Part shown: piece by piece, positions 10,812 to 51,004 of the stretch
Position numbering within the stretch: the stretch's first letter is position 1
Layout of the letters: each line of letters starts with the position of its first letter
Source: Candidatus Aminicenantales bacterium
Lineage (GTDB): Bacteria > Acidobacteriota > Aminicenantia > Aminicenantales > Saccharicenantaceae
NCBI GenBank assembly: GCA_049513915.1
Contig: JBEKVN010000013.1
Location: forward strand, 78,265 to 142,264
DNA: 64,000 nt
Reading direction: 5' to 3'
The notes under the pieces: generated by a model
Told to the model about the DNA's origin: nothing
Seen by the model: only the letters and a program-made list of their open reading frames with translations
Database searches by the model: none
Made by a program: the position numbers and the translations under genes

Positions 10812-11825
10812 ATGAAAATGTCGGCCAAATTCTTCTTCGGTTGCTTGGTCGCGTGCGGGGGGATTCTCGCCGCTCCGCGCCTCCCCGCTCAAGAAGGCGT
10901 TGGGGCTTCCGGAATCTGGAAAGGGCATGAGGCCGGGATCAGCGGCGTGGCCTTGAACCCGGACGGATCCCGGCTCGCGACGAGCGGGTTGGACGGAGCG
11001 GTCCGGCTCTGGGACACGGCCTCCGGCCGGGTCCTCCGGGTTCTGCGCAGCCGCGATGCCGAGTTCTACGCCGTCTCGTTTTCGCGGGAAGGGAAATTCG
11101 TCGTTGCGACCGGAGATAAAGGAATGGTGACGGTTTTCGACGCTCAATCAGGGAGCATCCTCCGGGAGCTCCGGGGGCTTGAGGGTTGGTCGGCGGGTTT
11201 GGCTCTCTCTCCCGACGGCCGGTTCGCGGCGGCCTGGAGCATGGACGGTCGCGTCCTCGTTTGGGACATCGAGGGCGACGGGAAGCCGCGTGTCCTCGCG
11301 GGAGACGCCAGGAAATGGGGGATGGCGCTGGCGTGGTCCCCCAACGGCCGCGTTTTGGCGGCAGGGAGGGCGTCCATCACGCTCTGGGACGTCGAAAAAG
11401 GTGTTCGCATGGGAGATCTTTCCGGCCACAGGGATTTCGTCAGGGATCTGACGTTTTCGCCGGACGGGCGCCTCCTGGCGTCGACGGGCCTCGACAAAAC
11501 AGTCAGGGTTTGGGACGTCCCGGCCACCCGCGAACGCTATGCCCTCAGGCCTGAAGGCTTTGTTCATCCCTCGACCCAAGGTCCCGTGACCGAACCGATC
11601 CGTGTTCCCCTGCTCGCGGTGCGTTTCTCTCCCGACGGAAAAACGCTGGCGACCGCCGGGGCCGACCGCCTCGTGCGCCTCTGGGACGCCGAAACCGGGC
11701 GTTTTATCCGGGCCTTCCAGGGGCATGCCATGAGCGTCACGGGGCTGGCATTCAGCCCGGACGGGAAAACCCTTTATTCCGCCAGCCTGGACAAAATCAT
11801 CCGTGTCTGGCGGCTTAAGCCCTAA
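10812..11825 (+). CDS. WD40-repeat beta-propeller protein with signal peptide
   Basis: RBS GGGAGG. Repeated WD40 units ending in LWD/VWD/TVFD (GAVRLWDTASG, VRVWDVPA, LVRLWDAETG, IIRVWRL). Confidence 0.7.
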   Translation: MKMSAKFFFGCLVACGGILAAPRLPAQEGVGASGIWKGHEAGISGVALNPDGSRLATSGLDGAVRLWDTASGRVLRVLRSRDAEFYAVSFSREGKFVVATGDKGMVTVFDAQSGSILRELRGLEGWSAGLALSPDGRFAAAWSMDGRVLVWDIEGDGKPRVLAGDARKWGMALAWSPNGRVLAAGRASITLWDVEKGVRMGDLSGHRDFVRDLTFSPDGRLLASTGLDKTVRVWDVPATRERYALRPEGFVHPSTQGPVTEPIRVPLLAVRFSPDGKTLATAGADRLVRLWDAETGRFIRAFQGHAMSVTGLAFSPDGKTLYSASLDKIIRVWRLKP

Positions 11826-21894: not shown

Positions 21895-21975
21895 ATAACG
21901 GTGACACATAACTAAATACACTAAATAGGGATATGCGTCTATTTCGGTAATGAGTTATATGTCACCGAAATCAAC
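21895..21975. repeat. AT-rich palindromic intergenic element, family A copy 2
   Basis: CGGTGACACATAACTAAATACACTAAATAGGGA...CTATTTCGGTAATGAGTTATATGTCACCGAAAT. Roughly 85% identical to 5596-5677 with the same arm/core layout. Confidence 0.6.
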
Positions 21976-22072
21976 CGGACCGGGTTTGACCGGGCCCGGG
22001 ATTCTTAGTAAAATACTAAGGAATGATGATCGACTTTAGCGGGAAGAGTCTCACAGGAGGAAGGGGGGTGTC

Positions 22073-22504
22073 ATGAAAAAACGATACTGGCGCTGCAACA
22101 TCTGCAACGACGTTCACTACGGAATCGCCCCGCCCGAGCTTTGCCCGACGTGCCAGGCGCTGAACGCCTACGCCGAGATCACGGCCGATGAAGCTCGCAA
22201 GTTCCTGGGCGGCGGCCCCGACGTGACCTTCACGCCGGCCGATTTCCGGCAGGCCATCGAACGGTTCACCTCCGGGAACGAGTTCATGGTCAACCCGGAC
22301 CCGGGCAAGGTCGAAACCCTGGTCGAGGGGATCTTCGAGAATGAGAAAAACCACGGGTTCAAATACTGCCCTTGCCGCCTGCGCACCAAGGACTGGGAAG
22401 AGGATTTGAAACTCGTCTGCCCCTGCAACTTCAAGATCCACGAAACCTATCGCGGACTTCCGAACGGCGAATGCTGGTGCGGACTCTTTGTCAGGAGGAC
22501 ATAA
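22073..22504 (+). CDS. rubredoxin-like domain fused to ferredoxin:thioredoxin reductase catalytic-subunit-like domain
   Basis: N-terminal CxxC...CPxC rubredoxin knuckles (RCNICNDVHYG...CPTCQA). C-terminal CPC-x14-CPC-x15-CWC resembles the FTR catalytic CPC..CPC..CHC arrangement. RBS AGGAGG. Confidence 0.6.
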   Translation: MKKRYWRCNICNDVHYGIAPPELCPTCQALNAYAEITADEARKFLGGGPDVTFTPADFRQAIERFTSGNEFMVNPDPGKVETLVEGIFENEKNHGFKYCPCRLRTKDWEEDLKLVCPCNFKIHETYRGLPNGECWCGLFVRRT

Positions 22505-22785
22505 TGGCTCGACTGCTGATGTTCCACGGGCGGGAATGCCCCCACTGCAAAAAGATGATGGCGGTCGTCGAACAGCTCGAAAAAGAGATGGGCATCGTCT
22601 TCGAAAAGCTCGAGATCTGGCACGACGAGAAAAACGCCGACCTGATGAGGTCCTACAAGCCGGTCATCGCGCCAAAGTGCGGCGGCCAGCTGCGGGTCCC
22701 GACGTTTCTGAACGTCGATACGAGCGACGTCATTTGCGGCGAGGTCGAGCCCGACAAGCTCAAGGCCTGGCTCGAGAAGAAATAG
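22504..22785 (+). CDS. small thioredoxin-fold protein (CPHC active site; Trx/Grx-like)
   Basis: 93 aa, CPHC motif at residues 12-15. Start ATG overlaps the upstream stop (TAATG). Longer ORF-track alternative from 22372 rejected. Confidence 0.6.
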   Translation: MARLLMFHGRECPHCKKMMAVVEQLEKEMGIVFEKLEIWHDEKNADLMRSYKPVIAPKCGGQLRVPTFLNVDTSDVICGEVEPDKLKAWLEKK

Positions 22786-22867
22786 CCTCGCCCCTCGCGG
22801 GGCCGGGGCGGCGGCGCCGGAAGTTTCGTCCGGCGGGCTCCAGGAATCGGGGCGAATCGGGGGACGA

Positions 22868-23947
22868 ATGATCGAACGCTTTGACCCGCTCAAGGGGGAA
22901 AGGCTCCAGATTCTTGACGAGGCGGGCGAGGTTCGCGCCGGACTCGAGCCGGCCCTGCCCGGCGAGGCCCTGCGCAAGATGTATGCGCATATGGTCCTCG
23001 CCCGGGCCGCCGACGCCAAGGCGCTCAAGCTCCAGCGCCAGGGGCGGCTGGGGACGTACGCGTCGAGCCGCGGGCACGAGGCCTGCCAGGTCGGCACGGC
23101 CTCGGCCATGGACGGGCCGGATTGGCTCTTCCCCTACTTCCGCGACCTGGGGACCTACATCACGCTCGGCTATCCGCTCGAGGATTACTTCCATTACTGG
23201 ATGGGGAACGAAGCGGGAATCCGGACGCCAGAGGGCCTGAATATTTATTCCTTCGCCATTCCCGTGGCTTCTCAGATCCTCCACGCCGTCGGCGCCGGGA
23301 TGGCCGCCAATTACCGGAAACTCCAGATTGCCGTGGTCGCGACGTTCGGGGACGGGGCGACCTCCGAGGGCGATTTCCACGAGGCCATGAATTTCGCCGG
23401 CGTCTTCAAGACGCCGAACGTTTTCGTGTGCTACAACAACCAGTTCGCGATCTCGGTCCCGCGGAGCCGGCAGACGGCCTCTGCGACCATCGCCCAGAAG
23501 GCCGCCGCCTACGGCTTCCGCGGCGTTCAGGTCGACGGCAACGATATTCTGGCCGTGTACGCGGCCGCCAAAGAAGCCGCGCAGAACGCCCGGAGCGGCG
23601 GCGGCCCGACCCTGATCGAGGCCTACACTTACCGGATGGGCGACCATACGACGTCGGACGACGCCGCGCGCTACCGGACCAAGGACGAGGTCCTCGCGTG
23701 GGAGAAGAAGGACCCGGTCGCCAGGTTCCAAATCTACCTAAAGAACAAGGGCATCTGGGACGGGGCCTATGAAAAAGAGGTCCAGGACAAGGCCGCGGAG
23801 TTGGTGGAAAAGGCCGTCGCGGCGGCTGAGGCGAAGCCGCCCGCTTCGGTCGAAGACCTCTTCGCCTTCACCTACGCCGCGATGACGCCGAACCTCAAGG
23901 AGCAGCTGGCCGGGGTCGAGCCTTCCGACAAGGAGGCCGCCCGATGA
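22868..23947 (+). CDS. 2-oxoacid dehydrogenase E1 component alpha subunit (TPP-dependent; PDH/BCKDH/acetoin DH type)
   Basis: TPP-binding region GDGATSEGDFHEAMNFAG...YNNQ typical of E1 alpha. Confidence 0.85.
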   Translation: MIERFDPLKGERLQILDEAGEVRAGLEPALPGEALRKMYAHMVLARAADAKALKLQRQGRLGTYASSRGHEACQVGTASAMDGPDWLFPYFRDLGTYITLGYPLEDYFHYWMGNEAGIRTPEGLNIYSFAIPVASQILHAVGAGMAANYRKLQIAVVATFGDGATSEGDFHEAMNFAGVFKTPNVFVCYNNQFAISVPRSRQTASATIAQKAAAYGFRGVQVDGNDILAVYAAAKEAAQNARSGGGPTLIEAYTYRMGDHTTSDDAARYRTKDEVLAWEKKDPVARFQIYLKNKGIWDGAYEKEVQDKAAELVEKAVAAAEAKPPASVEDLFAFTYAAMTPNLKEQLAGVEPSDKEAAR

Positions 23948-24918
23948 TCATGACCATGGTCCAAGCCATCAACCAGGCCCTCGCCCAGGAAATGGCGAGG
24001 GACGACAGGTACCTGCTCCTCGGCGAGGACGTCGGGCGCGACGGCGGCGTCTTCAGGGCCACCGAAGGGTTGGTCGACAAGTTCGGGCCCGACCGGGTCA
24101 TCGACACGCCGCTTGCCGAATCGGCGGCCGTCGGAGTGGCGGCCGGCATGACGGCGCTCGGGCTCCGGCCCATCGTCGAGATCCAGTTCATGGGTTTCAT
24201 CTACCCGGCCTTCAACCAGATCATTTCCCACGTCGCCCGCCTGCGGAACCGGACGCGCGGCCGCTTCCCCGTCCCGCTGACCATCCGGACGCCCTACGGC
24301 GCCGGCGTCCGGGCCCTCGAGCACCACTCCGAGAGCACGGAGGCCCTGTTCTGCCAGATCCCCGGGCTGACGGTCGTTGTCCCATCGAACGCCATTGACG
24401 CCAAGGGACTGCTCATCGCGTCCCTGCGGAGCGAAGACCCCGTCCTCTTTATGGAGCCGACGAAGCTCTACCGGTCGGAAAAACAGGACGTCCCCGAGGC
24501 GGCTTACGAAGTCCCGCTGCGGCAGGCGAAAATCGTTCGGGAGGGCGCGGACCTGACCATCGTCGCCTGGGGCGCTATGGTTCCCGTAGCCATGAAGGCT
24601 GCGGAAAAGGCGGCGTCCGAGGGCGTGAGCACCGAGGTCCTGGATCTCAGGACATTGGCCCCGATGGACCGGGAAACGATCATCGCCTCGGTCAAGAAGA
24701 CCGGGCGGGCCATCGTCCTCCACGAGGCCCCGAAGACATGCGGGCTGGGCGCGGAGATCGCCGCTCTGATCGGCGAGCGGGCCCTGCTCAGCCTGAGCGC
24801 TCCGGTCATGCGCGTCACGGCGCCCGACATCACGATCCCGCTGCCCAAGAGTGAGGACTATTATTACCCGAGCCCGGAGAGACTGCTCCGCGCGATCCAC
24901 GAGATCATGGAGTTCTGA
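23944..24918 (+). CDS. 2-oxoacid dehydrogenase E1 component beta subunit
   Basis: Transketolase-like pyrimidine and C-terminal domains. Start overlaps the E1 alpha stop. Confidence 0.85.
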   Translation: MIMTMVQAINQALAQEMARDDRYLLLGEDVGRDGGVFRATEGLVDKFGPDRVIDTPLAESAAVGVAAGMTALGLRPIVEIQFMGFIYPAFNQIISHVARLRNRTRGRFPVPLTIRTPYGAGVRALEHHSESTEALFCQIPGLTVVVPSNAIDAKGLLIASLRSEDPVLFMEPTKLYRSEKQDVPEAAYEVPLRQAKIVREGADLTIVAWGAMVPVAMKAAEKAASEGVSTEVLDLRTLAPMDRETIIASVKKTGRAIVLHEAPKTCGLGAEIAALIGERALLSLSAPVMRVTAPDITIPLPKSEDYYYPSPERLLRAIHEIMEF

Positions 24919-24920
24919 TC

Positions 24921-26147
24921 ATGGCCAAACAATTCCGGTTCCCCGACGTCGGGGAAGGCATCACGGAAGGCGAAATCGTCCGCTGGCTGGTGAAGGAAGG
25001 CGAGGAGATCAAGGCCGACCAGACCCTGGCCGAAATCGAAACCGACAAGGCCATCGTCGAAATGCCCTCCCCTTACGCCGGGACGGTGCTCAAGCTCCAT
25101 TTCAAGGAAAAGGACATCGTCAAGGTCGGGCAGGTCCTCGTGACGATCGGGGAAAAAGGCGAGGCGGTGCCCGAGGCGGGAGCGGCGGCCCAGGCGCCGG
25201 TCGCGGAGGCGCGGGCCGGAACGCTTTCCGGGACGATAGCCGCTGGAGCCGCGGCCCAGGCCGGCGCGGTTCAGGCCACGCCCAAGGTCCGAAAGCTCGC
25301 ACAGGAGCTCGCGGTTGACCTCGCGGCTATCCAGGGAACGGGCCCGGGCGGCCGGATCACCGAGGACGACGTCCAAGCGGCCAAAGAGAAGCTTCCCGAA
25401 AAGAAACGCGAGATCAAGGTCAAATCGAAATATGACTTCTACGGAACCCTGGAGCGCATCCCGCTCCGCGGCATCCGGCGGGCCACCGCCAAGCACATGC
25501 GGGAATCGCTGGATAAGGCGGCCCACGTCACGCATTGCGACGAGGCCGACGCCACCAAGCTGGTGGCCCTCCGCGACGCGATGAAGCCCGAAGCCGAGGC
25601 CAAGGGCGTCAAGCTCACCTACCTGCCGTTCATCGTCAAGGCGGTCGTCGAGGCCCTCAAGCTCCACCCGACCCTCAACGCGATGCTCGACGAGGAGGAG
25701 CAGGAGATCGTCGTCAAGAAGTATTACAACATCGGGATCGCGGTCGACGTCCCCGACGGCCTGATCGTCCCCGTGGTCAAGATGGCCGACCAGAAATCGG
25801 TCTTCGATATCGCCGAAGAGATCCAGAACCTGGCCAAGGCGGCCAAGGAACGAACGCTTGACCTGGCCGACCTCAAGGGCGGAACGTTTTCCATCACAAA
25901 TATCGGGGTCATCGGCGGGTACGCGGCAACCCCCATCACCAACTATCCCGAAGTGGCCATCCTGGCGTCCATGAAGATCGAGGACCGGCCCCGGGTCGAG
26001 AAGGGGGCCGTCGTCGTCCGGAAAACCATCCCCCTCTGTCTGGCCTTCGACCACCGGGTCAACGACGGCGCGGAGGCGGCCCGTTTCGCCAAAGACCTCA
26101 TCCGCTTCCTGGAGGATCCGGAGAAATTGCCGCTCAAGGGCGAATAA
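24921..26147 (+). CDS. dihydrolipoamide acyltransferase E2 component
   Basis: N-terminal lipoyl domain with ETDKA lipoyl-lysine motif, Ala/Pro-rich linker, E3-binding domain, and catalytic domain with DHRVNDG. Confidence 0.85.
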   Translation: MAKQFRFPDVGEGITEGEIVRWLVKEGEEIKADQTLAEIETDKAIVEMPSPYAGTVLKLHFKEKDIVKVGQVLVTIGEKGEAVPEAGAAAQAPVAEARAGTLSGTIAAGAAAQAGAVQATPKVRKLAQELAVDLAAIQGTGPGGRITEDDVQAAKEKLPEKKREIKVKSKYDFYGTLERIPLRGIRRATAKHMRESLDKAAHVTHCDEADATKLVALRDAMKPEAEAKGVKLTYLPFIVKAVVEALKLHPTLNAMLDEEEQEIVVKKYYNIGIAVDVPDGLIVPVVKMADQKSVFDIAEEIQNLAKAAKERTLDLADLKGGTFSITNIGVIGGYAATPITNYPEVAILASMKIEDRPRVEKGAVVVRKTIPLCLAFDHRVNDGAEAARFAKDLIRFLEDPEKLPLKGE

Positions 26148-41226: not shown

Positions 41227-42729
41227 ATGATGAGAAAGAAACTGTTCGTCCGGCCCGCCCTCGCGCTGGCCGTCCTCGTCCTGCTCAACCTGGCCCTGGC
41301 GGCTCAGTCCTTCGAGGGCGTCAAGAAGCAGGTCCGGACCCATGTGCTGCCGAACGGCATGAAATTCATCGTCCTCGAGCGGCACGACGTCCCGGTGGCA
41401 TCGTTCCATGTCTACGCGGACGTCGGCAGCGCCAACGAATCCTACGGCATTACGGGCATTTCCCATATCCTCGAGCACATGGCTTTCAAGGGGACCACCA
41501 CGATCGGGACGAAGGACTACGCCGCGGAATCGAAGGTCCTCGAAGAGCTGGACAATGTCTACGACCAGATGAAGCGAGAAGAGGCCAAGCCCATCGCGGA
41601 CAAGGCGAAAGCGGCCGAACTCAAAGCCAAGTTCGACGACCTCGAAAAGAAAGCCAAGGACTACGTTGTCAACAACGAGTATTTCGACATGATGATGCGG
41701 CAGGGCGACGCCGGCGTCAATGCCTACACGTCCTCCGACGCCACCCAGTACATCAACTACCTTCCCAGCAACCGCCTGGAATTCTGGATGGCCATGACCT
41801 CGGACCGGTTCCTGAACCCCGTCTTCCGGGAATTCTACAAGGAGCGGGACGTGATCATGGAGGAGCGGCGCCTCGGGGTTGAAACCCAGCCCACGGGCAA
41901 GCTCATGGAGGATTTCGTGGCCGTCGCCTTCAAGGCCCACCCGTACCACCACGAAGTCGTCGGGCACATGTCCGACCTCCAGGCCATCCGGCGGCAGGAC
42001 GTCGAGGACTATTTCAAGAAGTTCTACAGCCCAAGCAATCTAACCGTTGGGATCGTGGGCGACGTTTCGGCGGACGAAGTCTTTCGGCTGGCCGACCTCT
42101 ACTTCGATCGCATCCCGAGCGGGCCCAAGCCCGAGCCCGTCCGGACCAGGGAGCCCGAGCAGTGGGGCGAGAGGCGCGTCATCGTCTCCGCCAAATCCCA
42201 GCCGTTCCTGTTCATCGGTTTCCATGTCCCGGACGCGAAAAGCAAGGACGCCCCGGCCCTCGAGGCCCTCGTCAACATCGTCGGACGGGGCCGGTCCTCC
42301 CGGCTCTACCAGGCCCTGGTCAAGGACAAGAAACTGGCGATCCAGACCAGCTGCATGAACGGGTTCCCCGGGGACAAGTTCCCGAACCTCGTCGTCTTCT
42401 ACGCGATTTCGGCCCAGGGAAAGACCTCGGCCGAATGCCAGGCGGCCATCGAGGAGGAGATCGAGAAGATCAAGAAGGAATCGGTGACGGAAGACGAGCT
42501 GACCAAGTTCAAGCGGAGCACCATCAAGGGGCTCCTCGGCCAGATGAAATCCAACCCCCGGATGGCCGCGATGCTAACCTACGCCGACGTGGTCCTGGGC
42601 GGCTATGAAAAGGCGTTCGACCAGATCGAAGACTACAAAGCTATCACCGCCGAAGACGTCAAACGGGTCGCCAACACGTACCTCGTGAAAACCAACCGGA
42701 CCGTCGGCGAGATCATTCCCGAGAAGTAA
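41227..42729 (+). CDS. M16 family zinc peptidase (pitrilysin-like), catalytic subunit
   Basis: Signal peptide. Inverted zinc motif HILEHMAFKG (HxxEH) and a downstream E. Confidence 0.85.
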   Translation: MMRKKLFVRPALALAVLVLLNLALAAQSFEGVKKQVRTHVLPNGMKFIVLERHDVPVASFHVYADVGSANESYGITGISHILEHMAFKGTTTIGTKDYAAESKVLEELDNVYDQMKREEAKPIADKAKAAELKAKFDDLEKKAKDYVVNNEYFDMMMRQGDAGVNAYTSSDATQYINYLPSNRLEFWMAMTSDRFLNPVFREFYKERDVIMEERRLGVETQPTGKLMEDFVAVAFKAHPYHHEVVGHMSDLQAIRRQDVEDYFKKFYSPSNLTVGIVGDVSADEVFRLADLYFDRIPSGPKPEPVRTREPEQWGERRVIVSAKSQPFLFIGFHVPDAKSKDAPALEALVNIVGRGRSSRLYQALVKDKKLAIQTSCMNGFPGDKFPNLVVFYAISAQGKTSAECQAAIEEEIEKIKKESVTEDELTKFKRSTIKGLLGQMKSNPRMAAMLTYADVVLGGYEKAFDQIEDYKAITAEDVKRVANTYLVKTNRTVGEIIPEK

Positions 42730-42748
42730 GGGAAGTGAGGAGACACCC

Positions 42749-44185
42749 ATGAATAACGCGAAGACCATCCAGAAAGCGATCGCCGGGCTTTGCCTCCTGG
42801 CCGTTCTCTTCGGGGCCGCCTACGCACAGAAAGCGCCGAAGGACAAGTTCGCCTTCGGGCCCCTTCACCCGATCAAGATGCCCAAGGTCGTGGAGGCCGA
42901 ACTGCCGAACGGCCTCAAGCTCTTCCTCGTCGAGGACCCCGAGTACCCGACGATCGACCTGTACGCCATGGTGCGCACCGGCGCCGTTTTCGAGCCGGCG
43001 GACAAGACCGGGCTGGCCTCCATCACGGGGTCCGTCCTGAGGACGGGTGGCACGCAGACGAGGACTGGCGATCAGATCGATAAGGAGCTCGAGACTCTGG
43101 CCGCGACCGTGGAGACCGGCATCGGGGACATGTCCGGGTCTCTCCGGGTGTCCGTGCTCAAGGGGGATTTTGACAAGGCCGTGGCCATCCTCGCCGACAT
43201 CCTGACCCATCCCGCCTTCCGGGAGGACAAGATCAACCTGGCCAAGATCCAGCAGAAGTCCATGATCTCCCGCCGCAACGACGACATCGGCGGCATCACC
43301 TACCGCGAGTTCGACCGGCTGATCTACGGGAAGGACAGCCCGTACGCCCGGCAGATCGAATACGCGACGATCGACGCCATCACCCGTCAGGACCTGGTGG
43401 ATTTCTACAACGCGTATTTCCATCCCAACAACACCCTGATGGCGGTCTGGGGAGATTTCAAGGCGGATGACATGGCCGCCAAGTTGAAAACAGCCCTGGG
43501 AGCATGGACCAAGGGCCGGCCGTCGGCCGCGCCCTGGCCCAAGGTCAATTATGAATTCAAGTCGACGGTCAACTATATCGAGAAGCCCGACGTCAACCAG
43601 GCCAACGTCATGCTCGGCCACATCGGCGGCCTCATGAACAACCCCGACCTCGCCGCCCTGAACGTCATGAACCAGATCCTGTCCTTCGAGCGCATGTTCA
43701 AGCGGGTCCGGACGGACGAGGGCCTGGCCTACAGCGTCTGGGGGAGCTACGGGGCCTCCTACGTCTATCCCGGGACCTTCAACTGCGGCGTCCAGACCAA
43801 GTCCCAGTCCACGGTCTACGCCATCAACATCATGCTCCAGGAGCTGAAGAAGATCACCGAGCGGGAAGTGACGGACGAAGAGCTGGCCAAGGCCAAAGAC
43901 GGCTATCTCAATTCCTACGTTTTCGACTTCGAGAGCAAGGCCCAGATCGTCAACCGCCTCATGTCCCTGGCGTATTACGGCTATCCCCGGGATTTCGCCG
44001 AGAAGCTCAAGCAGGGCGTCGAGAAAGTCACCAAGGCCGACGTTCTCCGGGTGGCCAAAAAATATATCCAACCGGGCCAGGTCCAGATCCTCGTCGTCGG
44101 GAAGAAAGAGGATTTCGACAAGCCGCTGTCCACGCTGGGCGCCGTGAACGTCATCGACATCACGATCCCCGGCCCGAAGAAATAG
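42749..44185 (+). CDS. M16 family peptidase, non-catalytic partner subunit
   Basis: M16 fold without HxxEH. Signal peptide. Confidence 0.75.
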   Translation: MNNAKTIQKAIAGLCLLAVLFGAAYAQKAPKDKFAFGPLHPIKMPKVVEAELPNGLKLFLVEDPEYPTIDLYAMVRTGAVFEPADKTGLASITGSVLRTGGTQTRTGDQIDKELETLAATVETGIGDMSGSLRVSVLKGDFDKAVAILADILTHPAFREDKINLAKIQQKSMISRRNDDIGGITYREFDRLIYGKDSPYARQIEYATIDAITRQDLVDFYNAYFHPNNTLMAVWGDFKADDMAAKLKTALGAWTKGRPSAAPWPKVNYEFKSTVNYIEKPDVNQANVMLGHIGGLMNNPDLAALNVMNQILSFERMFKRVRTDEGLAYSVWGSYGASYVYPGTFNCGVQTKSQSTVYAINIMLQELKKITEREVTDEELAKAKDGYLNSYVFDFESKAQIVNRLMSLAYYGYPRDFAEKLKQGVEKVTKADVLRVAKKYIQPGQVQILVVGKKEDFDKPLSTLGAVNVIDITIPGPKK

Positions 44186-48102: not shown

Positions 48103-48170
48103 AGGGCCGAAGGGGAATGGCCGGAACGTCATGTGCGGCTTAGCGCAAGACGCACTCTGGAGTGGAGGCC
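48103..48170. repeat. family C conserved leader block, copy 2 (uninterrupted)
   Basis: GGCCGAAGGGGAATGGCCGGAACGTCATGTGCGGCTTAGCGCAAGACGCACTCTGGAGTGGAGGCC. Matches the two halves of 29208-29400 that flank its insertion. Confidence 0.45.
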
Positions 48171-48222
48171 ATCCCCGAGGCCCTTTCAAAGACGCACAGT
48201 CACGAGACCCGTCCGACCTTTC

Positions 48223-48251
48223 TTGAGCCCGGCGCGAGCGCTGTGTATAAT
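48223..48251 (+). promoter_or_regulatory. sigma70-like promoter TTGAGC-17-TATAAT upstream of M16 peptidase
   Basis: -35 at 48223-48228 and -10 at 48246-48251. Paralogous to the promoter at 29407-29435. Confidence 0.45.
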
Positions 48252-48281
48252 GGGCTTTTCAATCTCCCTGGAGGTGACGGC

Positions 48282-49607
48282 ATGCCGAAAAAAACGTGGC
48301 TCACGATCCTCTTCCTGTCAACATTCGCCCTGTCCCTTTCGGCGGCGTTCAAGAAGGAGGATGTCAAGGTCTACCAGCTCGCGAACGGGCTCAAGGTCCT
48401 CCTCGTCGAGGACCATAACATCCCCAACATCGCCCTCTACACGTTCTTCCGCGTCGGTTCCCGCAACGAGCGGCCCGGCCTAACGGGCGTGTCCCACTTC
48501 ATCGAGCACATGATGTTCAACGGAACGCCCAAGGTCGGGCCCGGCGAGTTCGACCGGCGCATGGAATTCCGCGGCGGGTCGAACAACGCCTATACGGCGG
48601 ACGACATGACGGGCTACACGGACTGGTTCCCGGCCCCGGCCCTCGAAGCCATGATCGACATGGAGGCCGACCGGATGCAGGGCCTGGCCTTCGTTCCCGA
48701 CGTCCTGGAGTCGGAGCGGGGCGTCGTCGCCTCCGAGCGCCGGATGGGCGTTGAAAACAACAACGACTCGATCCTCAACGAGAACGTCCGGGCCACCGCC
48801 ATCATGGCCCACCCGTACCACTGGGACGTCATCGGCTGGATGAGCGACATCCTGAGCTGGCGCCGCGACGAGGTGATCGCCTATTACCGCACATACTACG
48901 CGCCGAACAACGCTATCCTGGTCGTCGTCGGCGACTTCGAGCCGGCCAAAACCCTGGGCCTCATCAAGAAATATTACGAGCCGATCAAGGCCTCGATCGC
49001 GCCCCCCTCCGTTTCGACGGTCGAACCGCCCCAGATGGGGCCCAAGAGCGTCCTCATCCGGAAAGAAGCGCAGGCGCCGTCGTTCATGGTCGTCTGGCAC
49101 GCCCCGAACGCCAAGGATGCCGATTTCCTGCCGCTTTCGATCCTGGCCAAGCCGCTTCTCCAAGGCGAGAGCAGCCGCCTCTACCGGCGTCTGGTCCGCG
49201 AAGAGCAGCTCGCGATCCGCGTCGGGGGCGGAGCGCAGGAGACCATCGACCCCTTCCTGTTCACGATCGACGTCAAGCCCCGGCCGGGCGCCGACTTCGA
49301 CAAGATCGACCGGGTTATCGAGGAAGAACTGGCCAAGATCAAGAACGAGGGGATCACGCCGAAGGAGTTCGAGAAGGCCATGAACATCGTCCGGAACGAT
49401 TTCTACATGGGCCTCCAGACGATCTCCGGAAAGGCCAACCAGCTCGGCGCCTATGAGCTTCTCTACGGCGATTTCGGAAAGCTCTTCACCATCATGGACG
49501 ATTACGCGGCCGTCAAGATCGAAAGGGTGAAGGAGGTCGCGAAGAAATATCTCACGGAGAATAATAAAACGATCGGGAAGCTCGTCCCCGAGGGAGGTGC
49601 CAAGTGA
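48282..49607 (+). CDS. M16 family zinc peptidase, catalytic subunit (second pair)
   Basis: Signal peptide at MPKKTWLTILFLSTFALSLSAA; ORF-track start 48162 rejected. HFIEHMMFNG HxxEH motif. Confidence 0.85.
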   Translation: MPKKTWLTILFLSTFALSLSAAFKKEDVKVYQLANGLKVLLVEDHNIPNIALYTFFRVGSRNERPGLTGVSHFIEHMMFNGTPKVGPGEFDRRMEFRGGSNNAYTADDMTGYTDWFPAPALEAMIDMEADRMQGLAFVPDVLESERGVVASERRMGVENNNDSILNENVRATAIMAHPYHWDVIGWMSDILSWRRDEVIAYYRTYYAPNNAILVVVGDFEPAKTLGLIKKYYEPIKASIAPPSVSTVEPPQMGPKSVLIRKEAQAPSFMVVWHAPNAKDADFLPLSILAKPLLQGESSRLYRRLVREEQLAIRVGGGAQETIDPFLFTIDVKPRPGADFDKIDRVIEEELAKIKNEGITPKEFEKAMNIVRNDFYMGLQTISGKANQLGAYELLYGDFGKLFTIMDDYAAVKIERVKEVAKKYLTENNKTIGKLVPEGGAK

Positions 49608-51004
49608 AAAAGCTCGCCCTGACAGGTTTCGCGCTTGTTCTGGCCGCCGTCCTGGCCGCCCCGGCGCCGCTCGCCGCGGCCGCCCAGCTGCCGGCGCCGG
49701 AAAAGCTCGTCCTCAAGAACGGAATCACGGTCTATTTTCTCAAGAACTCGGACCTCCCGATCGTCAGCTTCCGGATGGTCGTCCGGGGCGCCGGGTCGGC
49801 CTTCGAGCCGGCCGCGGCCGAAGGCGCGGCCAACCTGGCCGCGACCCTGATGATGAAGGGCACGGCCAAAATGGACGCGGACGCCGTCGCCGAAGCCCTC
49901 GATTTCATGGGCGCCAGTCTCGGCATCTCCGCGGCCGACGAGTACGCCCAAGTCAGCGGCGACAGCCTTTCCCTGCACTTCCCGCGCCTCATGGAGATCG
50001 CCGCGGACTGCCTCACGGCCCCCGCCTTCAAAACCGAGGAGTTCGCCAAGGAGCGGGCCCGGAGGATCGACAGCCTCAAGTCCGCCAAGGACAATCCAGG
50101 GGCGGCGGTCCGCTATTACTTCCAGAAGGCCTACTTCGGCGGCCACCCGCTCGGCCACCTGGCCACGGGAACGGAATCGTCCCTGCAGAAGATGACCCTT
50201 CAGGCGGTCAAAGACTTCTACGCCCTGCATTTCCGGCCCGACACGGCCATCGCGGCCGTCGTCGGCGACATCGAAAAGGACAAGCTCGTCGCCCTCCTCG
50301 AATCGACGGTCGGCCGCTGGGCCAAGCCCGCGAGCGCCGCGCCGTCCGACGTCATCCCCGCTCTGCCGCAGCCGAAGGGCAAGACACTCCTCCTCGTCGA
50401 TAAGCCCGACGCCACCCAGGCCTATTTTGTCCTGGGCGCGCCCGGGTACGCCATGGGAGACAAGGTGACGCCTCAGGCCGCGGTCATGAACACGCTATGG
50501 GGCGGACGGTTCACCTCCTGGCTGAACACCGAGCTCCGGATCAAGCGCGGGCTGACCTACGGCGCTTCGAGCGCGTTCCGAACCTGGGTCGCCGGCGGGA
50601 TTTTCACGGCCAGCTCCTACACGAAAAACGACAAGATCGGCGAGATGCTTGACATCACGTTCGGCCTCCTCGGGAAGGGCGCCAAAGAGGGGTTCGCGGC
50701 CACGGACATCGAGAGCAGCCGCAACTATATCCAGGGGCAGTTCCCCCCGACGCTCGAAACCAACGCCAGCAAGGCCGGGGCCTACGTCCGCGTGGCCTTT
50801 TATAATCTCGGCTTCGACTACTACGACAAGTACCTGGCCGCGATCGGGAACGTTTCCGTCGAAGCAGCCAAGGCCGCGGCGGCGGCCCTCCTGCCGCAAG
50901 ACGATTACGTCCTGGTCGTCGTGGGCAAGGCGGCCGACATCCGGCCCCTGCTCAAGAAATTCGGGACCTGGCAGGAAAAGAAGATCACGGACCCTGATTT
51001 TTAG
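49604..51004 (+). CDS. M16 family peptidase, non-catalytic partner (second pair)
   Basis: Signal peptide. M16 fold without HxxEH. Start overlaps the upstream stop. Confidence 0.75.
   Translation: MKKLALTGFALVLAAVLAAPAPLAAAAQLPAPEKLVLKNGITVYFLKNSDLPIVSFRMVVRGAGSAFEPAAAEGAANLAATLMMKGTAKMDADAVAEALDFMGASLGISAADEYAQVSGDSLSLHFPRLMEIAADCLTAPAFKTEEFAKERARRIDSLKSAKDNPGAAVRYYFQKAYFGGHPLGHLATGTESSLQKMTLQAVKDFYALHFRPDTAIAAVVGDIEKDKLVALLESTVGRWAKPASAAPSDVIPALPQPKGKTLLLVDKPDATQAYFVLGAPGYAMGDKVTPQAAVMNTLWGGRFTSWLNTELRIKRGLTYGASSAFRTWVAGGIFTASSYTKNDKIGEMLDITFGLLGKGAKEGFAATDIESSRNYIQGQFPPTLETNASKAGAYVRVAFYNLGFDYYDKYLAAIGNVSVEAAKAAAAALLPQDDYVLVVVGKAADIRPLLKKFGTWQEKKITDPDF

Follow-up and report, generated by a model that had tools for sequence, protein, structure and literature searches.

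Here we describe a two-gene redox module encoded in a 64,000-nucleotide (nt) stretch of a metagenome contig from a Candidatus Aminicenantales bacterium (JBEKVN010000013.1, positions 78,265 to 142,264; the whole stretch is hereafter called the window). The first gene, which we call RdFTR (open reading frame 1, ORF1; 22073..22504, + strand), encodes a 143-amino-acid (aa) iron-sulfur disulfide reductase of the ferredoxin:disulfide reductase (FDR) type with an N-terminal rubredoxin-like domain, as judged from Pfam, Protein Data Bank (PDB) matches and homologues. The second, which we call TrxL (ORF2; 22504..22785, + strand), encodes a 93-aa redoxin of the thioredoxin/glutaredoxin (Trx/Grx) fold with a CPHC motif (22537-22548), as judged from an AlphaFold2 (AF2) model, Foldseek and conservation. 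We consider it very probable that RdFTR is an FDR-type enzyme uniting a [4Fe-4S] cluster and disulfide with an Fe(Cys)4 relay, and that TrxL is its dedicated CPHC redoxin, with which it exchanges the disulfide. Comparative genomics further points to the lipoyl arm of the E2 component of an adjacent 2-oxoacid dehydrogenase complex as the client of TrxL and, more weakly, to the pair standing in for the E3 component (Lpd) of that complex; we would give this reading, in which the client is the lipoyl arm and the pair substitutes for E3, a probability of roughly 0.45.

The association between the two genes is the firmest part of the picture. In the window, the last base of the ORF1 stop codon (TAA) is also the first base of the ORF2 start codon (ATG), giving TAATG, an overlap that an earlier note on this stretch, made from the letters alone, had read correctly together with the 93-aa length of ORF2 and its CPHC, and both genes are preceded by good Shine-Dalgarno sequences (GGAGG before ORF1, AGGAGG before ORF2). 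In a scan of species-representative genomes, RdFTR relatives were present in 287 genomes; among the best 80 of these, all Aminicenantes-type, TrxL lies directly 3' of RdFTR in every locus (80/80). When 166 loci of every source are pooled, ~157 have their TrxL start -8 to +7 nt from the RdFTR stop, and 110 show an overlap of 1, 4 or 8 nt between the genes; over ~170 loci, the two adjoin in all but a few. TrxL was found only beside RdFTR among the loci examined. Judged by this layout, RdFTR and TrxL form one unit and are translationally coupled.

Directly downstream of the pair and on the same strand, as the earlier note had also seen, lies an operon for a pyruvate dehydrogenase (PDH)-type 2-oxoacid dehydrogenase. 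E1alpha (22868..23947, + strand) is assigned by Pfam E1_dh (294.6 bits) and NCBIfam TIGR03181 (460 against a cut-off of 411), and E1beta (23944..24918, + strand) by Transket_pyr, Transketolase_C and NF006667, the last at 303.7 bits, slightly under its cut-off of 321. The E2 dihydrolipoyl acyltransferase (24921..26147, + strand) has lipoyl, E3/E1-binding and catalytic domains (Biotin_lipoyl, E3_binding and 2-oxoacid_dh), and its sequence contains both TDKA, with the lipoyl lysine, and DHRVNDG, with the catalytic His. The gap from the TrxL stop to the E1alpha start is 82 nt; a consensus scan of this gap found no terminator-like site, and its RNA, folded as an 88-nt stretch, is no more stable than shuffled sequence (z 0.35). 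Co-transcription of RdFTR-TrxL with E1/E2 is plausible from this arrangement. Of 78 Aminicenantes genomes that could be evaluated, 47 carry E1alpha-E1beta-E2 immediately 3' of the pair in the same orientation. The co-occurrence check with E1/E2 that the earlier note had proposed gave a positive result; the association extends to archaea, as described below, and the function it indicates is narrower than the one the note suggested.

In the textbook view, a lipoyl-dependent 2-oxoacid dehydrogenase complex is built from three enzymes, E1, E2 and E3 (dihydrolipoamide dehydrogenase, Lpd), and a gene for the third is missing here at the locus. Specifically, a regular expression for the disulfide signature and tblastn found no E3/Lpd ORF in the 64-kb window or in ~170 loci, the genomes elsewhere possibly encoding one. 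The tblastn probe was an E. coli Lpd sequence; as a positive control, it detected distant TrxR-like flavoproteins in three loci (L091-L093). Furthermore, neither Pyr_redox_2 nor Pyr_redox_dim appears near the operons in the Pfam lists of the looked-up loci.

The same association recurs in a rearranged form in Methanomassiliicoccales, which are methanogenic archaea. In all seven looked-up loci (7/7), the orthologous archaeal pair is followed by lplB-lplA and faces a convergent E2-E1beta-E1alpha-lipA cluster, and of 30 archaeal-type metagenome loci that could be evaluated, 26 have the same island; lipA and lplB of this island were confirmed with NCBIfam. The lplB-lplA genes lie on the same strand as the pair with gaps of 9-48 nt, and lipA lies upstream of E1alpha. 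Gene order therefore differs between the bacterial and archaeal loci, whereas the linkage of the pair with E1/E2 is kept in both. As no Pyr_redox/Lpd was found there, the archaeal island holds LipA, LplAB, E1 and E2 with RdFTR and TrxL as its sole redox proteins. Near the Aminicenantes operon, no lipoate ligase or lipoyl synthase was found in the window or the loci. The archaeal TrxL is 46-56% identical to that of the window, and the bacterial and archaeal E1/E2 share 54-65% identity, levels which suggest that the whole module moved between the two domains of life.

The occurrence of a PDH-type complex in presumably anaerobic lineages itself needs explaining, since archaeal lipoylated 2-oxoacid dehydrogenase complexes have been reported to track aerobiosis, with obligate anaerobes having lost them (PMC3904984). 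A pyruvate dehydrogenase complex has been described in environmental Methanomassiliicoccales genomes with no comment on E3 (PMC7824343). No paper linking FTR-like or FDR proteins (FTR, ferredoxin:thioredoxin reductase) with 2-oxoacid dehydrogenase complexes was found in a search that did not extend to the primary FDR papers, and, as far as we have found, the cross-domain association of the pair with an E1/E2 complex that lacks E3 at the locus is undescribed.

The assignment of RdFTR draws on two cysteine-rich regions, both of which the earlier note had picked out and both of which stand in the sequence as it described them. At the N terminus, cysteines 8, 11, 24 and 27 (RCNICNDV...CPTCQA; CxxC-x12-CxxC) fall in a rubrerythrin-type Cys4 domain (residues 6-29; 22088..22159, + strand) that matches RUBY_RBDX, the rubredoxin-like domain of rubrerythrin, with 30.4 bits against a cut-off of 26.5, as well as the rubrerythrin C-terminal domains 1RYT and 1B71. 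All four of these cysteines are invariant among homologues, and the domain is predicted to form an Fe(Cys)4 electron-relay site. C-terminal to this domain, the protein matches FeThRed_B (PF02943) over residues 59-141 with 55.8 bits against a gathering cut-off of 22 (E 5e-15). It carries cysteines 99, 101, 116, 118, 134 and 136 in a CPC-x14-CPC-x15-CWC motif (22367..22480, + strand), which includes an invariant H123-E-T-Y126 and aligns with the CPC...CPC...CYC of the FDRs 4TPU and 7PWE. By homology with FTR, four of the six cysteines would ligate the [4Fe-4S] cluster and two would form the redox-active disulfide. A generic zinc ribbon, the alternative that the earlier note had named for the C-terminal domain, is ruled out by the FeThRed_B and 4TPU matches.

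Sequence matches in the PDB agree with an FDR, with 4TPU at E 3.3e-14 and 7PWE at E 7.3e-10, and a Foldseek search with the RdFTR model returned 7PWE_B, 7PWE_A and 4TPU as its top three matches, with rubrerythrin and classical FTR also present. Among 719 RdFTR homologues collected by word-sharing, the best 120 are ~143 aa long and have the identical Cys pattern in every case. As two Pfam gathering thresholds are passed and the Cys pattern is conserved in homologues, the reading of RdFTR is not a matter of chance. The earlier note had called this arrangement of Cys pairs diagnostic of the FTR catalytic subunit (FTRc). The likeness to FTR holds through FeThRed_B and 4TPU, but the protein is not FTR proper: with no variable-subunit gene in the neighbourhood and no CHC in the third pair, RdFTR is best filed with the FDR branch.

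The third cysteine pair and the position of the rubredoxin-like domain further set RdFTR apart. In an exhaustive HMMER search, FTRc-like proteins differed in the residue between the two cysteines of the third pair (H, W, F, Y, L and others), and 26 of 91 motif-bearing matches had W there. Among close RdFTR homologues it is Trp without exception (120/120), and in the HMMER matches the N-terminal-rubredoxin architecture goes with CWC nearly without exception; the His-to-Trp change to which the earlier note drew attention is accordingly a conserved trait of this architecture. The N-terminal position of the rubredoxin-like domain, unlike the order in 4TPU, marks a separate subfamily. Beyond Aminicenantes, it is found in Methanomassiliicoccales, Woesearchaeota, Nanoarchaeota and one contig labelled Deltaproteobacteria, and some 191-194-aa Methanomassiliicoccales variants (P0241, P0405 and P0398, from L085 and L089) carry two tandem N-terminal rubredoxin-like domains.

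TrxL likewise appears to be a family of its own. Its AF2 model has a mean predicted local distance difference test score (pLDDT) of 90.1 and a beta-alpha-beta-alpha-beta-beta-alpha order, with C12-P-H-C15 (the CPHC at residues 12-15) at the start of the first helix (13-29). All top PDB matches in Foldseek are glutaredoxins or thioredoxins (probability 1.00, template modelling (TM) score up to 0.73). TrxL thus models confidently as a Trx/Grx fold, in line with the Trx-fold reading of the earlier note. It falls below curated profile thresholds in Pfam (Thioredoxin_2, 24.4 against 27; Glrx-like, 23.3 against 26), and all its NCBIfam matches are far under their cut-offs; by these comparisons TrxL is a divergent family. 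Among 542 homologues, which include an identical copy labelled Candidatus Aminicenantales, the best 120 all have CPHC, and CPHC, the cis-Pro P66 (RVPTF), W39-H40, W89 and C78 (codon 22735-22737) are invariant across these 120, with C59 (22678-22680) present in 119 of them. Archaeal orthologues keep all of the invariant residues, including P66 and C78, as well as C59. From an alignment to thioredoxin, C59 and C78 would lie in loops flanking the active site, where the two might pair as a second disulfide or bind a metal.

FDRs have been described as archaeal and bacterial Fe-S enzymes related to FTRc whose substrates are atypical thioredoxins, and one of them is reported to reduce a Methanosarcina acetivorans thioredoxin (PMC6262447). 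The earlier note held that the partners of such proteins are largely uncharacterised, which is fair in that they are poorly known and too strong in view of this thioredoxin and of 7PWE, a natural glutaredoxin/FDR fusion from Desulfotalea psychrophila. Like RdFTR and TrxL together, 7PWE brings a Grx-sized redoxin and an FDR domain into one system, and this fusion supports RdFTR and TrxL as direct partners. The redoxin of 7PWE forms the N-terminal part of the fusion, and its third pair reads CYC; in the window, by contrast, TrxL has a gene of its own and the domain fused to the N terminus of RdFTR is rubredoxin-like. A comparison of TrxL with the 7PWE Grx domain gave no sequence match at E <= 1. 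The M. acetivorans FDR itself (4TPU) shares with RdFTR an FTRc-like domain, the CPC...CPC...CxC motif and the lack of a variable subunit. It also carries a fused rubredoxin-like Cys4 domain, which is C-terminal where that of RdFTR is N-terminal. Its third pair, CYC, has x12 spacing, as opposed to CWC with x15 spacing and the invariant HETY insert in RdFTR. To our knowledge, 4TPU has no adjacent dedicated CPHC redoxin and no lipoyl-complex context.

If the lipoyl arm is the client, a plausible route for its electrons can be laid out. Thiol-disulfide exchange would carry them from dihydrolipoyl-E2 to TrxL, which would in turn reduce the RdFTR disulfide, and the electrons would then leave singly via the [4Fe-4S] cluster and then the rubredoxin-like centre for a final acceptor of the ferredoxin or rubredoxin type, with the Fe(Cys)4 domain passing single electrons between the RdFTR cluster and this external iron-sulfur carrier. 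The outcome would be a pyruvate-dehydrogenase-type system for anaerobes that uses neither flavin nor NAD. The proposed pair would have the same role as E3 (Lpd), re-oxidising the dihydrolipoyl arm via a redox-active disulfide; E3 is an unrelated FAD/NAD flavoprotein, whereas the pair is iron-sulfur based and has two components. That electrons move out of the lipoyl group is a direction that we infer: CPHC is a relatively oxidising, DsbA-type motif and rubredoxin-type centres are high-potential, both of which favour such a flow. E1 requires oxidised lipoyl groups, and LipA delivers the reduced (dihydrolipoyl) form. A CxxC protein that exchanges electrons directly with an E2 lipoyl group is known from the Lpd-DlaT(E2)-AhpD-AhpC relay of Mycobacterium tuberculosis, in which AhpD is not of the Trx fold and which still uses E3 and NADH and ends in a peroxiredoxin. 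The fullest form of the proposal, in which the pair is a two-component E3 replacement running FTR chemistry in reverse and the whole module (RdFTR, TrxL, E1alpha, E1beta and E2) was horizontally transferred between domains, we put forward more tentatively, with odds somewhat short of those for E3 substitution itself.

Were E3 substitution borne out, it would provide a new way of closing the catalytic cycle of lipoyl-dependent complexes, the first physiological case, as far as we know, of FTR-type chemistry running from a thiol to an iron-sulfur carrier, and an extra anaerobic route from pyruvate to acetyl-CoA beside pyruvate:ferredoxin oxidoreductase. Even if the E3 idea is wrong, the module offers a clear candidate partner and client for FDR-type enzymes, whose partners are poorly known.

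Several observations weigh against a lipoyl-specific role and E3 substitution. Characterised FTR and FDR enzymes run, as far as we know, in the reductive direction, and electron transfer from dihydrolipoamide (~-0.29 V) to a low-potential ferredoxin (~-0.4 V) is uphill. E2 retains its E3_binding domain, though this domain also binds E1. An lpd gene may lie elsewhere in the genome, the searches having covered the window and the loci; E3 genes are often unlinked from E1/E2. The AF2 model of RdFTR, built from a 19-sequence alignment, is poor (pLDDT 63.7, with the cluster region <50), in keeping with a shallow alignment and a cluster-binding region whose cofactor was absent from the modelling; it served the Foldseek check only, and no structural conclusions were drawn from it. 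The lipoyl island is not beside the pair in four archaeal-type loci, and the pair has no adjacent E1/E2 in ~40% of Aminicenantes loci. Nine of the latter (L019, L034, L036, L040, L041, L042, L045, L046 and L048) have genes for a LarE-like PP-loop ATPase and MnmA 3' of TrxL on the same strand, 11 Aminicenantes loci have a convergent panDCB beside the pair, and elsewhere other genes are found. Finally, RdFTR relatives without TrxL occur in DPANN-type archaea and one other lineage. In these loci (L086, L091, L092 and L093, on DPANN-type or unassigned archaeal contigs), the neighbours include Fur, rubrerythrin, desulfoferrodoxin and a TrxR-like flavoprotein, with a glutaredoxin in L091 and L092, and RdFTR comes after pentose-phosphate genes in L086 and L093. 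The presence of TrxL-less RdFTR in such oxidative-stress clusters indicates that the enzyme family is not tied to lipoyl proteins. It also suggests a second role for the family, possibly in linking thiols to rubredoxin-type acceptors.

Part of this evidence speaks for a general ferredoxin-dependent thiol-disulfide system, in which electrons would pass from reduced ferredoxin to RdFTR, TrxL and then many client disulfides, and the proximity to E1/E2 would reflect co-regulation or inherited gene order rather than a dedicated partnership. Among the clients might be peroxiredoxins, the repair of oxidative damage and enzymes in which catalytic disulfides form; of the neighbours, the LarE-like ATPase and the tRNA thiouridylase MnmA, both engaged in sulfur transfer, may form such disulfides, and either could serve TrxL as an alternative client. 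The variety of neighbours in Aminicenantes and the oxidative-stress setting of the DPANN-type relatives both fit a general system, as does the reduction of a thioredoxin by 4TPU, the closest characterised enzyme (PMC6262447). What it leaves unexplained is the adjacency to lipoyl genes in two domains of life despite a rearranged gene order, and the lack of E3 in those operons. Moreover, a distinct, highly conserved TrxL that occurs only beside RdFTR suggests a specialised adaptor. We regard a general thiol system as the strongest of the alternatives, though on balance unlikely.

It is also possible, with distinctly lower probability, that the pair maintains or regulates the PDH-type complex reductively, with the catalytic flux left to an ordinary E3 whose gene lies elsewhere. 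The pair would then act on lipoyl groups that had been oxidised or over-oxidised or on regulatory disulfides of E1/E2, or would support lipoylation by LplAB/LipA. The archaeal island is suggestive in this respect, the pair lying immediately upstream of lplB-lplA in close same-strand order with lipA upstream of E1alpha, and reduction is the activity for which FTR and FDR enzymes are known. Set against this, a reductant is not obviously required where LipA already gives the dihydrolipoyl form and E1 needs the oxidised one, CPHC is a motif of the oxidising type, and E3 was seen in no locus.

A third candidate client, which we judge highly improbable, is a thioredoxin-dependent class III ribonucleotide reductase (RNR). 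The idea draws on Methanosarcina barkeri, in which, reportedly in work by Wei et al. in 2015, an FDR and an NrdH-like redoxin feed class III RNR, with NrdD in the same operon. The M. barkeri system would resemble the present one in encoding an FDR and a small redoxin with their client, which is NrdD there as opposed to E1/E2 here. In eight archaeal-type loci that are closely related to one another (L103, L104, L113, L088, L089, L094, L101 and L107), NrdD is found 2-9 kb away from the pair; three of these (L103, L104 and L113) lack the lipoyl island. A passage of PMC6262447 cites an FDR role with class III RNR (its reference 32). However, NrdD is never in the same operon as the pair and is absent from the window and all Aminicenantes loci, and the eight NrdD are near-identical (83-99%), so that their proximity reflects the gene order of one lineage. 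Lastly, a classical chloroplast/cyanobacterial FTR-thioredoxin regulatory system shares with RdFTR the FeThRed_B family, the six-Cys cluster/disulfide arrangement and weak Foldseek matches (1DJ7, 2PU9 and 7BZK), but is effectively ruled out by the missing variable subunit (no FeThRed_A gene in the window neighbourhood or the looked-up loci, ~+/-10 kb) and by Trp in place of the catalytic His (CWC for CHC), with the x15 spacing, the added rubredoxin-like domain, a sequence match to chloroplast FTRc 7BZK of only E 0.13 and a non-photosynthetic Aminicenantes host pointing the same way.

Returning to the window, the region upstream of the pair carries candidate regulatory elements. A sigma-70-like promoter (TTGACC, 17 nt, TAAAAT; 21986..22014, + strand) lies ~60 nt upstream of ORF1, and a TTTGACC...TAnTAT block is kept 5' of the RdFTR gene in most Aminicenantes loci. 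Overlapping the -10 element is a palindrome, ATTCTTAGTA-aaa-TACTAAGGAAT (22001..22024, strand not applicable), that is present as a single copy in the window and had no occurrences in 100 shuffles. A related block, TTTGACC...ATTTCCTAGTAnTATnGTAgAGAAT, lies 17-19 nt before the start codon in 16 orthologous loci by a strict pattern, and blocks of the ATTTCCTAGTAnTATnGTAgAGAAT type were seen by eye in many further orthologous loci. Taken together, this candidate operator at 22001-22024 probably serves some regulator. Two antisense ORFs across the region (22016..22441 and 22447..23109, - strand) have no homology support and were taken as high-GC artefacts.

Further upstream, a 21-nt inverted repeat at 21899-21967, with arms 86% complementary and 27 nt apart, sits in the AT-rich spacer 3' of a DUF481 outer-membrane gene. 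It is common only to the closest relatives, L004 and L006, and could be a terminator or a small mobile or repeat element. Elsewhere in the window, four M16-family (insulinase-like) peptidase genes are arranged as two tandem pairs (41227-44185 and 48162-51004) flanking a 1050-aa ORF, and positions 10812-11825 encode a 337-aa seven-bladed WD40 beta-propeller protein, a type uncommon in bacteria.

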